Shown: positions 6,394 through 27,721 of the stretch, piece after piece
How the letters are laid out: each line of letters opens with the position of its first letter
Numbering within the stretch: the stretch's first letter is position 1
Assembly: GCA_964462155.1 (NCBI GenBank)
Contig: CAYWWH010000003.1
Span: forward strand, 1,211 to 28,943
Direction: 5' to 3'
Source: an uncultured Candidatus Saccharibacteria bacterium
GTDB taxonomy: Bacteria > Patescibacteriota > Minisyncoccia > Phycocordibacterales > UBA12088
DNA length: 27,733 bases
The notes under the pieces: generated by a model
Told to the model about the DNA's origin: nothing
Databases searched by the model: none
What the model saw: the letters and a program-made list of their open reading frames with translations, nothing else
Position numbers and translations under genes: made by a program

Positions 6394-6422
6394 TTGACAT
6401 GTAGTGTAAAATGATATATAAT
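6394..6422 (+). promoter_or_regulatory. Perfect consensus sigma70/sigmaA promoter
   Basis: TTGACA (6394-6399), exactly 17 nt, TATAAT (6417-6422). Confidence 0.85.
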
Positions 6423-6461
6423 ACTTATAGGATGGCATTTTCTAGATAACTATAAAAAATT

Positions 6462-6469
6462 GGAGGTGA
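6462..6469 (+). promoter_or_regulatory. Strong Shine-Dalgarno sequence
   Basis: GGAGGTGA; 5 nt separate GGAGG from the ATG at 6472. It is the only clear SD I found in the window. Confidence 0.7.
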
Positions 6470-6471
6470 CC

Positions 6472-6873
6472 ATGAAAAAGTACATTCTTTTTCTCCTCTC
6501 TCTCCTGCTTCTCTTGACTGGGTGCGGTATCACAGTACGTGTCGAACGCACCCAGGCTATCATGAGCAACCTCAATCTCAGAGCAGATGTGATTTCACAA
6601 AAGCTCGAGGGTTTGAGGACTCATGAGCTTGAGTCCATCAAAAGAGTTCTTGACGGGCTCGAGAGAGACAGAATCGAGGGGACGTCCTCTACTGACGTGT
6701 CGGTATATACTGCCAACACGAAAGAAAGGGATGACCAAGAGAAATCGAGAATCCTCAAATCCATAATCCACGGGAAGATGTACGATATTCCCAAAGAAGA
6801 GGAGTTGAGAATTCTCAACGACTTTGTCGATCGTATATGGAGGATGCGATCGGTATCGAAAGGCCGGGCATAG
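6472..6873 (+). CDS. Predicted lipoprotein, unknown function
   Basis: MKKYILFLLSLLLLLTGC is a basic n-region, hydrophobic core and lipobox LTG-C, followed by a helical charged mature domain. Start moved from TTG 6460 to ATG 6472 to match the SD. Confidence 0.75.
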   Translation: MKKYILFLLSLLLLLTGCGITVRVERTQAIMSNLNLRADVISQKLEGLRTHELESIKRVLDGLERDRIEGTSSTDVSVYTANTKERDDQEKSRILKSIIHGKMYDIPKEEELRILNDFVDRIWRMRSVSKGRA

Positions 6874-6935: not shown

Positions 6936-7856
6936 ATGAATACAGCTTTCTCAAAATTAAGCATTCTTATTGTAGTAGCGCTTATCCTTTCACTTGGTGG
7001 AGGTGTGTATGCTCTTATAAAAACTCTGAAAGAAATTAGGGATGAAGTGTCAACCGTACGGAGTGAACTTGCCTCAACAACGAACGCACTCTCACTATTC
7101 TCCTCTTCAACAACAAACAGAATATACGAAGCTGAAAAGAAACATACTGAACTTTCTGACCTATTCTACGAAGAACAGACAAAGTACAGCGAATTAAGTG
7201 ATAGCGTACGAAAATTTGATAGACAAGTCGATAAACTCAGTGGAAACGTAGAAACACTTGAGAAGCTCACAACGACAGATCCAGAACTCCTCCAGAAGTA
7301 TTCTCGCGTGTACTTTTTAAACGAACACTATAAACCGGGTGACCTCTCCATTATTCCTGAAGAGTACGACCTCATTGATGGTAAGCAGGTAAGCATACAC
7401 TCCGACGTCCTTCCCTACCTCAAAGACTTACTCAAAGGTGCTAAAGATGATGGTGTAAACATTATGGTACTTTCGGGATATCGCTCATTTGAAGATCAAG
7501 CAATACTTAAAGAAAACTACCTCGTTCGTTACGGACTTGGTGCAAACCAGTTCTCTGCTGATCAAGGGTACTCAGAACATCAGCTGGGAACGTCTGTTGA
7601 CTTTACGACGCAAGTTATTGGTCAGAACCTTTCTCTCTTCGATGGTTCTGACGCATTTCAATGGCTCATAAACAATGCCCACAAGTACGGCTTCGTACTT
7701 TCCTACCCTAAGAATAACGAGTACTACGTCTACGAACCGTGGCACTGGCGTTTCGTCGGTGAAGATTTAGCACGTGATTTAAAGAAAGATGGTAAGTACT
7801 TCTACGACCTTGAGCAGAGAGAAATAGACTCGTACATCCCCACTCTGTTTGATTAA
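6936..7856 (+). CDS. Membrane-anchored coiled-coil M15B D-Ala-D-Ala carboxypeptidase (VanY/LdcB-like)
   Basis: N-terminal TM, coiled coil, then SGYRS, SEHQLG.SVD (SxHxxGxAxD-like Zn motif), YGF.L.YP and YEPWHWRFVG. Confidence 0.9.
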   Translation: MNTAFSKLSILIVVALILSLGGGVYALIKTLKEIRDEVSTVRSELASTTNALSLFSSSTTNRIYEAEKKHTELSDLFYEEQTKYSELSDSVRKFDRQVDKLSGNVETLEKLTTTDPELLQKYSRVYFLNEHYKPGDLSIIPEEYDLIDGKQVSIHSDVLPYLKDLLKGAKDDGVNIMVLSGYRSFEDQAILKENYLVRYGLGANQFSADQGYSEHQLGTSVDFTTQVIGQNLSLFDGSDAFQWLINNAHKYGFVLSYPKNNEYYVYEPWHWRFVGEDLARDLKKDGKYFYDLEQREIDSYIPTLFD

Positions 7857-23570: not shown

Positions 23571-24668
23571 TTATCCAATAATCCCTCCTCCGAGGCACTT
23601 TTCACCTTGATACAAAACGACACTTTGCCCTCTCTGCACAAAGGGTTGTGGCTTGTCTAGCAAAAGCTCACAAGTTGTATCTGTACAAGATTTAAGAGTT
23701 ACACTAAAAAGCGGTTGTCTATACCTCAGTCGAGCCATACATGTTTTTGGAGGAGGTGATATCCAGTTACACTCTTGTAAGAGGATCGCACTTGTTGAGA
23801 CCCCCTCTTCCACATCACTGTTTCCAACCACTAAGATGTTTTTAGTAACATCTCTCTCTACGACGTAGTACGGTTTCGACGTCGGTGTTTTTTTGTGTAT
23901 GGTAAACCCGTGTCGTTGTCCAAGCGTGTACATCTGTGCACCATCATGGACCCCTATCACATCACCTTCCATGTTTAGCACATTCCCTTTTTTACTTTTG
24001 AGGTAATGAGATAAAAAATCTTTCATATCCACTTTCCCGAGAAAGCAGATGCCTTGGCTATCCTTCTTTTTTGCTGTAGGCAGTGTAAATCGGTCAGCTA
24101 AAACACGGACGTCACTCTTTTCAAATCCACCAACAGGAAAAAGGGTTTTACTCAACTGCTCTTGATTCAGAGTCCAGAGGAAGTAGGTTTGATCTTTTTG
24201 TGCATCTTTCCCTGTATATAGTTCATAGCGCTTTTTACTTCCCTCCTCAACTTCTCGCACTTGTGCATAGTGTCCCGTAGCTACGTGGGTATAACCATTA
24301 TCCAGAGCATAACGAAGTAAACCTCCAAACTTAATGTACTTATTACACATGACGTCGGGATTTGGAGTATTACCTCTTGCATACTCAGCGACTAGATACT
24401 CGACGACACTTTTCTCATACTCATGCGAAAGATCAATAGTATGGAACGGAATATGGAGGTGAGCAGCGACTCGCATGGCATCACGCCTTTCTTCGCGCCA
24501 TGAGCAAGGAAGCCAAGGAACACTCCACGTCTTTATAAAGGCGCCATGGACTGTGTGACCCTCTTCGAGAAGGAGTGCAGCAGCAACCGAGCTATCAACT
24601 CCCCCCGAAAGGGCCACCAAAACCCTAAAACGGGGACTGTCACGTTTTTTTTCCAAAATATGTGTCAT
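23571..24668 (-). CDS. mnmA: tRNA-specific 2-thiouridylase
   Basis: ALSGGVDSS, TPNPDVMCN, ATGHY, KDQTYFL, KKDSQGICF, TLGQR, LRYRQ, GQSVVLY. Confidence 0.98.
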   Translation of the reverse strand: MTHILEKKRDSPRFRVLVALSGGVDSSVAAALLLEEGHTVHGAFIKTWSVPWLPCSWREERRDAMRVAAHLHIPFHTIDLSHEYEKSVVEYLVAEYARGNTPNPDVMCNKYIKFGGLLRYALDNGYTHVATGHYAQVREVEEGSKKRYELYTGKDAQKDQTYFLWTLNQEQLSKTLFPVGGFEKSDVRVLADRFTLPTAKKKDSQGICFLGKVDMKDFLSHYLKSKKGNVLNMEGDVIGVHDGAQMYTLGQRHGFTIHKKTPTSKPYYVVERDVTKNILVVGNSDVEEGVSTSAILLQECNWISPPPKTCMARLRYRQPLFSVTLKSCTDTTCELLLDKPQPFVQRGQSVVLYQGEKCLGGGIIG

Positions 24669-24674
24669 AATAAT
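24627..24674 (+). repeat. Left inverted repeat of the RAYT element
   Basis: AAAACGGGGACTGTCACGTTT (24627-24647) is the exact reverse complement of 25393-25413; the ungapped match continues to 48 bp (40/48 by hand count). Confidence 0.92.
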
Positions 24675-24675
24675 A

Positions 24676-25347
24676 TTATCCTTTTCTCGGTCTTCCAGGA
24701 GATCGCATTGTTGCTTCCAAATGATACTTATTAACCATCGAATCGACCCATGTCATGTTCCCATAGGGCACTCCCTTATTTACTGAACCTCGAATCAATT
24801 CTAATTCTTCTTTTTGGAGAGGGGTGTTAATAAACTTTGAATATGTGCCAGTAATTTGAAAAGGGATTGGTTCAATAATTTTTCTCTGATTTTCATCACC
24901 ATGAACCCTCCTCCATGCACTACCCCACTGCCAATCTTCACAACGGGAAGATATTTTCGCTCGAACAGGATTATACTCAATATATTTAAACACTGTCATC
25001 AAATATGAACCTGAACTTACAAGGAATGATTTATACCTTCCTTGATATAAATGTCCAGCTCCAACGGTATCGGTTATAGTATGCACCTGGCGAGTATGTG
25101 CGTTTGTAACTCTATGCATAAACAAACCCAAATCTCCGTCATTAACAGGTTGTAAAAGCAAGTGCCAATGATTAGGCATAATCACGTATGCTAGAATCCG
25201 CATGTCAGTCATCTCTTTTGCATCAACCATTAAGTTTTCGAACAAACGATACTCGGTAGGTGAATTAAAAATCTGCATTCCTCCATTTGCACGATTTATA
25301 ACATGAAAAATTTCACCACCAACATCAACACGAGCTATTCGAGGCAT
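24676..25347 (-). CDS. REP-associated tyrosine transposase (RAYT/TnpA-REP, Y1_Tnp HUH family)
   Basis: MPRIAR...G.IFHVINR, YVIMPNHWH (HUH), LYQGRYKS, YIEYNPVRA (catalytic Tyr + NP), WQWGS, and C-terminal GRPRK. Confidence 0.92.
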   Translation of the reverse strand: MPRIARVDVGGEIFHVINRANGGMQIFNSPTEYRLFENLMVDAKEMTDMRILAYVIMPNHWHLLLQPVNDGDLGLFMHRVTNAHTRQVHTITDTVGAGHLYQGRYKSFLVSSGSYLMTVFKYIEYNPVRAKISSRCEDWQWGSAWRRVHGDENQRKIIEPIPFQITGTYSKFINTPLQKEELELIRGSVNKGVPYGNMTWVDSMVNKYHLEATMRSPGRPRKG

Positions 25348-25365
25348 AATAAATTTAAAATATTA

Positions 25366-25413
25366 ATAATTATAACACAATATTTAAAAAATAAACGTGA
25401 CAGTCCCCGTTTT
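25366..25413 (-). repeat. Right inverted repeat of the RAYT element
   Basis: Minus strand AAAACGGGGACTGTCACGTTTATTTTTTAAATATTGTGTTATAATTAT; partner of 24627-24674. Confidence 0.92.
25369..25377 (-). promoter_or_regulatory. Extended -10 (TGtTATAAT) for the transposase, inside the right repeat
   Basis: Perfect TGnTATAAT, 21 nt before ATG 25347. Confidence 0.6.
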
Positions 25414-25415
25414 TT

Positions 25416-26453
25416 TTAGTCGAGGTAGGAACGACGGTTAGCTAGATGTTCTGTGTAGGTTTTTGCAATATGGAGAAGACCATCTCTTCCATGAAGGTAA
25501 AAGAGTGCGTCTGTTTCTATGGGAGAAACCGCTGCGTCAAGCGCCTCAAGAGACGGACTCCCGATGGGTCCAGGAGGAAGTCCCCCGTTTCTGTATGTAT
25601 TGTAGAGCGAATCAACTTCAAGGTCAGAAAATTTTGGATTAAAGGTTTCTGTTTTTTCAATAAAACCAAAAACAGCATCCACCTGAAGAGGCATGTCTAT
25701 ACTTAATCGCTTCCAGAGAATTCCAGCAATCGCCCGTCTCTCCTCATAGTCTCGTGCCTCCTTCTCAAGGAGAGATGCCATGGTCACTATTTCATGGACC
25801 GGCCTACCAAAGGTCGCGATTTTACCTTCAAGGGTTCGAAGTCGTTCGTAGAACGTACGCTCCATGGTGTTTAAGATAAGTGCAGTATCTGCATTCGGCA
25901 GAAAGTAGTACGTATCAGGAAAAAGGTACCCCTCTTTCTCCTCAGCAAGGAGCATAAACTCATCACTATTAAAACGCTCAAACTTATCTCTAAAAATCTC
26001 TGCCATTTGGTACGTCGTCGCACCCTCTGGAATGGTCACCTTTACAGGTTCTAACCCGAACTCCCCACGAGTTACACGAGAAGCGATCTCAGTAAGTGTA
26101 AGTGGCTCACTAAAGTAGTAGTCACCTGCAAATACTGGCGCATTGTCGAGAGCATACGTTACGTAGAGGGTAAAGAAGAAACTGTTCTCAATCACTTCCT
26201 CTTCAGCAAAGATACGAGAAACACTATCAAGAGTAGAACCTTCTGGAATCGTAATAATTGTTTTTACAGGGAAAAATGGTGACGGCTGGTACACCTTGAA
26301 CCACACCCATGCACTTCCAAAGAACAAAGAGAGAAAAAGGATTCCAAAAAGAGCAAGTACTTTTTGCTTATGGTAAAGCCAAAAATCCTTTCGCCATAGA
26401 GACACCTTTTCACATACAGAGATAACATATTCTCGTACAATTTTTATATTCAT
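25416..26453 (-). CDS. mltG: Endolytic transglycosylase
   Basis: N-terminal TM, ITIPEGST, AGDY, VTIPEG, EGYLFPDTY, ASLLEKEA (catalytic Glu), LQVDA, YNTY...GLPPGPIGSP. Start trimmed to ATG 26453, 1 nt after the upstream stop. Confidence 0.95.
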   Translation of the reverse strand: MNIKIVREYVISVCEKVSLWRKDFWLYHKQKVLALFGILFLSLFFGSAWVWFKVYQPSPFFPVKTIITIPEGSTLDSVSRIFAEEEVIENSFFFTLYVTYALDNAPVFAGDYYFSEPLTLTEIASRVTRGEFGLEPVKVTIPEGATTYQMAEIFRDKFERFNSDEFMLLAEEKEGYLFPDTYYFLPNADTALILNTMERTFYERLRTLEGKIATFGRPVHEIVTMASLLEKEARDYEERRAIAGILWKRLSIDMPLQVDAVFGFIEKTETFNPKFSDLEVDSLYNTYRNGGLPPGPIGSPSLEALDAAVSPIETDALFYLHGRDGLLHIAKTYTEHLANRRSYLD

Positions 26454-26454
26454 A

Positions 26455-27714
26455 CTACCTTGGAAGATTAGAGGGGGCTTGAGCACGAGTTGACTCAATG
26501 CGTTGCATAGTAGGAGTCTTCGCAACACTTCCAGGTATATGAAAGAGTGTCGCCAACTCCTCGCTCGTCATCATGAAATTGTAAAACTCGTACGGAGGAT
26601 GGAACCAAGAACGACGTCGATACGCATCAATTATAGTCACTTTGTCAACGGCCACTTTCTTGCCATTAAAATCTTGCCATGGATAGTTAAAACGTGGCTC
26701 CCATCTGTCTCCAATGACACTTATAGAATTGTACCCGGGACTGCCAAATGGTTGCCACATGGTAAGAAGCCCAGTGATGTTTGCATCATCAAAAGATTCT
26801 TTCTCTGCGATGTAGATAGCCCGTATACCAAAATCCCAGTGTGTACTTGAAAGTCCAATACGGTTCATGAGCTGGACTCGCTTTACCTGTCTATCGCTTA
26901 AAACTTTCCCTTCTCCACCATTAGGGAAAACAATAGTCTCTTCTGGCTTTGAACGAATGTTTGCAAGCTCTTCTTTGGCATACTCATCGTATGTCTTTCT
27001 GTTTCTGTAGAAACCCCATGTCAAATCCTCTTTCTTACTCGCGCGAGCGAGTATCTGAATCCACATATACTCACCCTTCTTGAGACATCCTAAAAATTCA
27101 AAAATGTGATTAAGAGGATCAACTTTCTGCTCTTCCTTGCTCGCTGTTTGATTCAAATTGTAATCAACATACGTACGTATAGGTACTCCTATTTTATCCG
27201 CTAACCCGAAATCACATCCGAAACAGTTGTGCGTTTCAAGTGAGAATGGGAATTTCATCGCATAGTCTTCTACGGGAATTATTTCAATGTCTGGATAGTG
27301 TGCGTAGAAACTTCGTTCAACCATTCTCTGAAAAAACTTTCTCGCCCATACGTAGAGGTGTACCTCACCTTCAAAAGAGACGAGTTCAAACGAGTACCAC
27401 ATGCGCACTTTTCCCGTCCAAAGTCGATCAATAAAGTTTGCTTCACCTCCCTTTATCCATAATCCATCAAGAACAGCTTGCATGGCTACAGGAGACTTAT
27501 ACACCTCCTGAGGAAGACGGATCTCAAGGAGAACCATTTCTTGCTTCTCTATAAAACGCGAGCGAACATAATCAAGCCACCTGTACCAAAAAAACACCGC
27601 AAGAAGTGGTGGAACCCAGTATGGTGAAAAACTGAGAAAATACCCTACGTAATGAAAGGCCTCTTCAAACTGCTCCCACAGTGAGGGTAGCTGTGCAAGT
27701 AACGACTCGTACAT
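26455..27714 (-). CDS. Conserved hypothetical membrane-anchored protein (CPR-type)
   Basis: N-terminal TM, then LEIRLP...KSP.AM, YSFELVS..GEV..Y, YPDIEI..VEDY, PIRTY, DPL, WIQIL.R, ELATLFHIP. No Walker A motif. Alternative GTG start at 27717. Confidence 0.85.
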   Translation of the reverse strand: MYESLLAQLPSLWEQFEEAFHYVGYFLSFSPYWVPPLLAVFFWYRWLDYVRSRFIEKQEMVLLEIRLPQEVYKSPVAMQAVLDGLWIKGGEANFIDRLWTGKVRMWYSFELVSFEGEVHLYVWARKFFQRMVERSFYAHYPDIEIIPVEDYAMKFPFSLETHNCFGCDFGLADKIGVPIRTYVDYNLNQTASKEEQKVDPLNHIFEFLGCLKKGEYMWIQILARASKKEDLTWGFYRNRKTYDEYAKEELANIRSKPEETIVFPNGGEGKVLSDRQVKRVQLMNRIGLSSTHWDFGIRAIYIAEKESFDDANITGLLTMWQPFGSPGYNSISVIGDRWEPRFNYPWQDFNGKKVAVDKVTIIDAYRRRSWFHPPYEFYNFMMTSEELATLFHIPGSVAKTPTMQRIESTRAQAPSNLPR

Positions 27715-27721
27715 CACCTGT

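Follow-up and report, generated by a model that had tools for sequence, protein, structure and literature searches.

A RAYT-like transposase cassette whose end repeat probably supplies the start of mnmA in a Patescibacteria operon

Where does a housekeeping gene begin when the end of a transposase cassette lies directly over its first codons? This question is raised by a stretch of DNA of 27,733 nucleotides (hereafter the window, 27.7 kb), in which a gene for a RAYT-like transposase sits between inverted repeats in the junction of mltG and mnmA, and the called start of mnmA falls inside one of those repeats. An earlier note on this DNA had proposed that both housekeeping neighbours are entangled with the ends of the element, the left repeat encoding the start of MnmA and the right end supplying the mltG stop codon. 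Here we describe the cassette and its family, how it is likely to have come to lie at this junction, which start codon mnmA is likely to use, and what this arrangement shares with known systems.

The transposase cassette, its end repeats, and its family

The genes of the transposase region all lie on the minus strand of the window (Table 1). Downstream of mnmA are a 48-aa ORF, a 290-aa ATP-cone protein, and MgtC, and the rest of the window carries Patescibacteria-type housekeeping genes, including those for GltX, MurG, FtsW, MraY, RpoA, S4, S11, S13, L13, AlaRS, and M16 peptidases; tRNA and Rfam scans of the window found nothing. The window genes are packed, with gaps of 1-3 nt or overlaps.

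Table 1. Positions and strands of genes, repeats, and promoter-like sites in the window
Feature	Position	Strand	Details
Gene of 420 aa, function unassigned	26455-27717	-	From the ORF list
mltG (YceG family)	25416-26453	-	TAA 25416-25418; probable ATG 26451-26453, 1 nt after the upstream stop
Right (RAYT-upstream) inverted-repeat arm	25366-25413	.	From the repeat search
Right REP-like hairpin	25393-25413	.	AAACGTGACAGTCCCCGTTTT on the plus strand; from the repeat search
Right-arm extended -10 box TGTTATAAT	25369-25377	-	Putative promoter of the RAYT gene itself, 21 nt upstream of the RAYT ATG
RAYT-like Y1/HUH transposase	24676-25347	-	223 aa, intact; H60-W-H62, Y122, AT-hook-like PGRPRKG C-terminus
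Sigma-70 promoter-like site ATGACA-18-TATAAT	24970-24999	-	Within the RAYT ORF; the mnmA ATG follows about 300 nt downstream
Left (RAYT-downstream) inverted-repeat arm	24627-24674	.	REP-like hairpin, spacer, and -10-like box; holds mnmA codons 1-14
Left REP-like imperfect hairpin AAAACGGGGACTGTCACGTTTT	24627-24648	.	Minus strand encodes K(K)RDSPRF of MnmA
Left-arm box TGTGTCATAAT	24661-24671	+	Extended -10-like, points into the RAYT antisense strand
mnmA (tRNA 2-thiouridylase)	23571-24668	-	365 aa as called; conserved protein is residues 15-365
Perfect promoter TTGACA-17-TATAAT	6394-6423	+	Directly upstream of a lipoprotein ORF

The transposase matched PF01797 (E 2.4e-12), the Y1/HUH domain, and H60-W-H62 and Y122 were invariant in a 25-sequence family alignment; the window protein has all residues that are invariant in this alignment, of which it is itself a member. 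Against the NCBIfam RayT equivalog NF047646 it scored 71.3 bits, under the cut-off of 80, so we regard it as a RayT-like relative and not as a curated equivalog. Its 90%-identity cluster in the protein collection had one member on one contig, and no second copy at or above 90% identity was found in the window or in that collection. Relatives of the transposase are of uniform length (222-228 aa), 60-66% identical to the window protein, and hosted mostly by Parcubacteria-type genomes, with others in Planctomycetota, Acidobacteriota, and Nitrospirales. All family members have the HUH motif, the catalytic Tyr, and a PGRP(K/R)K C-terminus. This AT-hook-like C-terminus (24676-24700 in the window) caps a conserved extension of about 80 aa past Pfam Y1_Tnp (W..W.GSAWRR, NKGVPYG).

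An inverted-repeat search of the window returned two arms of 48 nt each that are 83% complementary, the outer 21-22 nt of which, with the core AAAACGGGGACTGTCACGTTT, are identical between the arms and give a 22-nt perfect core, so that inverted REP palindromes flank the transposase gene as they do a RAYT. The repeat in the earlier note was real but ended too soon: it was given as 24627-24668, and the left arm continues to 24674. As single-stranded DNA the core is predicted to fold into a small imperfect hairpin, in which a G/A mismatch separates 6 bp from a further 2 bp (-4.1 kcal/mol, z -2.4). The 16-mer ACGGGGACTGTCACGT is present in the 27.7-kb window as the two flanking copies, and neither it nor the 14-mer core was found elsewhere in the window even at 2-3 mismatches (chance expectation 0.05-0.12); a 20-mer scan of metagenome contigs gave 0 hits, and a genome-contig scan found nothing closer than 63%. 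The inner part of both arms reads TGTGT(T/C)ATAAT. In the right arm this box stands at a distance from the transposase ATG that suggests it is the extended -10 promoter of the RAYT gene. The left arm of the window has the weaker CATAAT variant, which reads TGTCATAAT on the plus strand. Its CAT (24666-24668), read on the opposite strand, gives the mnmA ATG; the matching place in the right arm has ATA, one base different. The left-arm box would serve as an inward-facing promoter antisense to RAYT.

To place these arms in context, we fetched 80 genomic loci of the family. At most of them the gene lies between inverted copies of a related hairpin in unrelated genomic contexts, one copy about 30-55 nt before the ATG and one 0-25 nt after the stop, the upstream copy always in '+' and the downstream copy in '-' orientation. 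The hairpin consensus is AATGGGGaCAGCCACCATT (anchored form RR(A/T)AA(A/T)-GG(G/T)G(T/A)CAG(G/C)(C/T)ACC(A/T)TT), and its stems vary compensatorily by locus: AATGG/CCATT, AACGG/CCGTT, and AAAGG/CCTTT were seen, with AAACG/CGTTT in the window. Of ten hairpins that were folded, seven did better than their shuffled counterparts (z <= -2), and some loci have REP arrays or extra dispersed copies within 5 kb. A box matching ATTAT[AG][AC]CACA occurs in both arms of three loci (L008, L012, L029), in the downstream arms of two others (L010, L058), and in the window, each time about 14 nt away from the hairpin, and this conserved spacing in the arms of relatives puts the mnmA ATG inside a family-conserved end module. 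At L087, with a transposase 64% identical to that of the window, TTATGACACGT occupies the matching downstream-end position within the same ATGACAC box, so an outward-facing ATG in the box is not peculiar to the window genome. Judged from their sequence, the arms belong to a widespread RAYT-like family whose ends consist of a REP hairpin, about 14 nt, and a TGTG.TATAAT box, and the architecture of the cassette is that of a RAYT with flanking REPs, an assignment for which the domain, the motifs, and the inverted palindromes on either side all speak.

The strict motif TGnTAnAAT was found in sense orientation upstream of the gene at 16 of 72 loci, compared with 0-2 in each of the other three orientations. 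A conserved antisense promoter at the downstream end was considered and rejected, since the strict motif lies antisense downstream at only 2 of the 72 loci and is not general there. The downstream-end box is strict in L008 (TGGTATAAT), the same CATAAT variant as in the window in L014, and TGATAAAAT in L074.

Arrival at the mltG-mnmA junction and the start of mnmA

The ORF check placed the mnmA start codon at ATG 24666-24668, and codons 1-14 (24627-24668) lie entirely within the left arm, exactly where the earlier note had put them. The arm translates to MTHILEKKRDSPRF as residues 1-14 of MnmA, codons 7-14 (KKRDSPRF) being the REP-like hairpin itself. The R15 codon (24624-24626) is the first beyond the arm: the conserved RVLVALSGGVDS starts at the first base outside the repeat, and residue 15 is also where the match to the Pfam MnmA domain sets in. 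The distance of 7 nt claimed between the RAYT stop codon (24676-24678) and the mnmA ATG was confirmed (24669-24675). Beyond the arm the protein is a complete MnmA, with domains PF03054, PF20259, and PF20258 all found (PP-loop SGGVDS, PRC-barrel, and C-terminal barrel), matches to the solved MnmA structures 2HMA, 9HLV, and 2DER at E 1e-88, and named homologues in the Parcubacteria group, Pacebacteria, and the Patescibacteria group. The earlier expectation that KRDSPRF would occur only with the element was borne out among the 120 best MnmA homologues, none of which carries it. By their position in the arm, codons 1-14 of mnmA are element-derived, and peptides of the element-encoded N-terminus would be MTHILEKKRDSPRFR, THILEK, and DSPRFR.

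We compared three relatives with 63-65% identical MnmA (L001, L002, and L003). In L001 and L002 the gene order is sigma factor, 423-454-aa protein, YceG, MnmA, 48 aa, about 277 aa, MgtC, SurA-like, and M16 peptidase, with a mltG-mnmA spacer of 30-37 nt and no transposase; L003 retains mnmA-48aa-282aa-MgtC and has a gene without assigned identity 194 nt upstream of mnmA. The earlier note had reasoned that an identical N-terminus in element-free relatives would count against an element-derived one, and the leaders of the relatives' MnmA proteins (MAQLLGMTGKKK-VLVAL, MTAKNR-VLVAL, or similar) differ from that of the window. No close genome with or without the element was found in the databases searched, where the nearest MnmA is 65% identical, and tblastn placed mnmA or mltG within 2.5 kb of the transposase at 0 of the 80 loci. 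The element-free relatives, the differing leaders, and the absence of mnmA and mltG from the 80 loci together indicate, from comparison of the sequences, a lineage-specific insertion of the cassette into the mltG-mnmA junction.

Compared with L002, the window is without the 30-nt spacer and about 11 native mnmA codons, and the cassette joins the mltG stop (plus four A's) directly to codon R15 of mnmA. As a simple insertion would leave the native start on one side, we infer an adjacent deletion, which would have followed the insertion or occurred together with it. The comparison of L089 and L090 with L088 offers a natural precedent for such a deletion within the family: these loci have an identical transposase protein (P0125) behind orthologous upstream genes, and the upstream gene of L088 ends 9 nt before the REP, whereas in L089 and L090 a 12-nt deletion beside the REP removes the TAG stop of the neighbour, so that its ORF crosses the REP and the -10 box and gains 15 codons. 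The extended ORF ends in RGMGTATIVSEIMWHN and a stop, 3 nt before the transposase ATG (loci compared over 1380-1503). Between L088 and L089/L090 the transposase is identical though the neighbour gene has diverged, and the downstream neighbours differ.

The other side of the cassette gave a different result. MltG matched PF02618 (E 2.5e-64) over profile positions 1-274 of 275, with its C-terminus at the usual position for the family, and MltG of the element-free L001 and L002 ends in RRSYLD and then TAA, the same as in the window; the stop is therefore ancestral, and the proposal that the right end of the element supplies it fails. A related statement, that the mltG TAA is built from an A-run continuous with the right repeat, stood in part: both A's of the TAA do fall within a stretch of eight A's, which makes up the outer stem of the hairpin on the right, but the inverted repeat proper ends at 25413, 2 nt before the stop codon. 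The 'CTAAAA' outside both hairpins adds only two more inverted-repeat bases, after a 4-A indel, and deleting 24627-25413 would leave the mltG TAA intact. As far as these alignments indicate, mltG abuts the right arm and is not entangled with it, so that of the two neighbours claimed to be tied to the element ends, mnmA is, through the codons in the arm, and mltG, with its native stop, is not. A conserved 'TAA head' on the REP was also considered as the source of the mltG stop: in an anchored profile (A/T)AA is part of the stem and T stands at -4 in 30 of 90, and the identical native stop of the relatives settles the question against it.

Whether the codons in the arm are translated depends on which start codon mnmA uses, and here we consider a start inside the arm likely. 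Each of the 113 leader-bearing homologues has at least 2-4 residues plus K/R-V ahead of LVAL (the shortest leader is MKKV), with K/R-V right before (L/F/Y)V(A/G) in about 97% of them, and solved MnmA proteins have leaders of comparable length. The window retains R15-V16, and ahead of R15 the frame offers two possible starts and no others, the ATG (codon 1) and a TTG (codon 5, 24654-24656), both in the arm. Around two-thirds of the long ORFs listed for the window begin with ATG, mostly after AT-rich sequence, and 24669-24690, before the mnmA ATG, is AT-rich as well.

The strongest rival is that the true start is the TTG at 24618-24620 or the GTG at 24615-24617, both outside the repeat, which would make the 14-codon extension a longest-ORF artefact and the element intergenic. 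Several observations are compatible with it: Shine-Dalgarno motifs are nearly absent, leaving the genome no such signal to discriminate starts; 7 of 120 database homologues are annotated as beginning at MSGGVDSS; and AAAAAGGGTTTTGGTG, the sequence after excision, would still provide a GTG. The same frame is also open in the right arm (IIITQYLKNKRDSPRF, with ATA in place of ATG), so its openness is a property of the repeat and no evidence of selection, and a 16-codon open stretch is not improbable by chance in AT-rich DNA. The resulting protein, however, would begin MVALSGG or MALSGG without the conserved K/R-V, and none of the 113 leader-bearing homologues begins at the position of either codon. 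R15 and V16, upstream of both, would have been conserved despite being non-coding, and if untranslated they had no reason to survive 35% protein divergence. In front of the TTG and GTG, moreover, lies the GC-rich hairpin half, whereas other starts in the window follow AT-rich sequence. We therefore regard a start outside the repeat as unlikely.

The explanation that best accounts for the locus, and that we find fairly likely as a whole, is that a conserved operon with closely packed genes, in a Patescibacteria (Parcubacteria-group) genome, received the cassette (24627-25413; REP hairpin, promoter box, Y1 transposase gene, box, and inverted REP hairpin) at its short mltG-mnmA junction and lost the native spacer and the first 5-11 or so native mnmA codons. 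mnmA would then be translated, as we infer, from the ATG in the downstream end box of the cassette, just past the transposase stop, its reading frame crossing the REP hairpin before joining the conserved part of the protein, so that the N-terminus of MnmA would be element-encoded. Its transcription would come by read-through from mltG and from the TGTTATAAT promoter, possibly helped by the promoter-like site in the transposase ORF, and mltG retains its own stop adjoining the right arm.

Two other histories can be set against this one. In the first, only an 18-22-nt REP was inserted in frame into a native leader MTHILEKK-RVLVAL, as Rickettsia RPEs are, so that the start codon is native. The remaining MT...KK-RVLVAL does resemble the native leaders MTAKNRVLVAL and MTGKKKVLVAL, and the 18 nt CGTGACAGTCCCCGTTTT amount to six codons; yet the ATG lies in the ATTATGACACAT box, which aligns at the same hairpin distance in both arms, in the window and in other members, and on this alignment a retained native 'MT' start was rejected. 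The few nucleotides between the transposase stop and the ATG also leave no room for the native spacer, and we judge this history very unlikely. In the second, which is hardly credible, the repeats are native operon signals (bidirectional terminator or attenuator hairpins) between which the transposase gene landed: each copy is superficially terminator-like (A-run, small hairpin, T-run), but inverted copies of this type of hairpin enclose the transposase at most of the 80 loci, whose genomic contexts are unrelated, the mltG-mnmA spacer of element-free relatives is without such a hairpin, and the RNA hairpins are weak (z ~0) and called by no terminator scan.

Expression of mnmA

A terminator scan predicted no minus-strand terminator between 25700 and 24300, and the REP hairpins are weak as RNA (-1.7 to -5 kcal/mol). 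RNA folds of the arms in context gave z -0.8 to +1.1 in three of four stretches and z -2.25 for the plus strand across the left arm. A role of the repeats as terminators was rejected on the weak RNA folds of both arms and the lack of a call by the scan. With no terminator and weak RNA hairpins, the simplest reading is that transcripts from mltG and from the transposase promoter run on into mnmA, and we suggest that it is co-transcribed with RAYT; the earlier placement of mnmA downstream of the transposase promoter agrees with the lack of a predicted terminator between them. At many genes of the window a box resembling TATAAT or TATACT stands 10-20 nt ahead of the ATG, a sign that the mRNAs may have very short leaders or none.

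The promoter-like site inside the RAYT ORF matches the sigma-70 consensus at 11 of 12 positions, and the window as a whole has two sites of such quality where 0.76 would be expected. Met117 and Tyr125, near the catalytic Tyr122, create the hexamers of the site inside RAYT; of 120 family members, about 115 carry Leu at the first of these positions and 117 carry Arg at the second. The site may have arisen by chance, or it may be an mnmA promoter that evolved within the transposase gene. The ORF behind the perfect plus-strand promoter (6460-6873, plus strand) encodes 137 aa with a lipoprotein-type signal (MKKYILFLLSLLLLLTGCG), and it and the following VanY-family gene (6936-7856) are the sole plus-strand genes in an otherwise minus-strand region.

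A more far-reaching reading, which we consider doubtful, is that the cassette has become an obligatory expression module of mnmA, providing its start and N-terminus, transcription from the RAYT promoter, and an internal sigma-70 promoter through L117M and R125Y, substitutions beside the catalytic tyrosine at residues otherwise about 96-98% conserved. The transposase would then be kept partly as a carrier of signals, and the REP-plus-box ends of the family would be portable gene-end cassettes that have repeatedly been captured in compact Patescibacteria, entrenching the element. The 'lock-in' of the element through mnmA as a route to domestication, raised in the earlier note, seems a reasonable addition but an unneeded one, because RAYTs are already regarded as domesticated and vertically inherited (PMC5581495); it presupposes an important role for MnmA in this organism and no rescue by the downstream GTG.

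Gene ends in the repeats of relatives, and known systems

Genes that read into the arms were also found at other loci of the family. At L008 the upstream AdoMet-decarboxylase gene ends inside the REP (...MGTATIVS and a stop), and at L023 the upstream REP contains the end of an APH-family gene, while the start of a phosphoribosyltransferase ORF may lie in the downstream one. A convergent R3H/KhpB-like gene at L086 (2168-2260) takes its last 20 or so codons from partial REP repeats, the REP, and the box, read on the opposite strand, and ends in NGANGDSHDTFASRVL with its stop 3 nt from the RAYT stop; at L087 the called downstream gene begins at a GTG inside the REP. The typical stem of the family, AATGG/CCATT, contains ATG on both strands. 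These neighbours show that the window case is not unique, and we regard it, from the sequences compared, as one example of a side effect that recurs when a REP-flanked gene comes to lie in very short spacers.

RAYT/REP(IN) systems are known from Pseudomonas and Enterobacteria (PMC3116915, PMC3337134, PMC5581495), where RAYTs have been described as single-copy, vertically inherited, domesticated transposases (PMC5581495), and the arrangement in the window is the RAYT/REP arrangement of these studies (PMC3116915, PMC5581495). Shared with them are a Y1/HUH transposase with no near-identical copy on record, short imperfect palindromes inverted around the gene, extra REP copies in some relatives (arrays or dispersed), and a position among housekeeping genes. 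The window differs in that its 223-aa protein has a conserved C-terminal extension of about 80 aa ending in AT-hook-like GRPKK and scores below the RayT equivalog cut-off, its 27.7 kb show no dispersed REP population, the host belongs to the Patescibacteria, the end arm has a -10-like box besides the hairpin, and one REP lies inside a coding region and not in extragenic sequence.

Rickettsia palindromic elements and other MITEs are known to fuse in frame with host ORFs (PMC10969869), and the window resembles them in having a palindromic repeat that is probably translated within a housekeeping protein whose conserved core is undamaged. Here, however, the repeat is the end of a transposase cassette, where theirs are dispersed and non-autonomous; their insertions are internal, but this one takes the place of the N-terminus and probably provides the start codon, and it is a single case in the window. 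IS200/IS605 elements, which have asymmetric subterminal hairpins and several identical copies (PMC5581495), share with the cassette a PF01797 Y1 transposase and small hairpins near the ends; the window ends are instead a symmetric 48-nt inverted pair, and no second copy was found in the window or the protein collection. Some insertion sequences give their neighbours outward expression signals such as promoters or hybrid promoters. The window would be like these in that a host gene relies on signals from the end of a mobile element, and unlike them in that the end would contribute a start codon, 14 codons, and probably read-through, and not only an outward -35/-10. No new mechanism is involved, as there are precedents for protein termini encoded by repeats, for RAYT/REP systems, and for expression signals that come from elements.

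For annotation, start and stop calls beside such cassettes may be repeat-derived and should be treated with care. L086, L087, and L089 compared with L088, together with the window, suggest that cassette ends have been absorbed repeatedly in the RAYT-like family, and the mnmA locus would provide a checkable example of how a housekeeping gene in a streamlined genome can take in one end of a domesticated transposase cassette.
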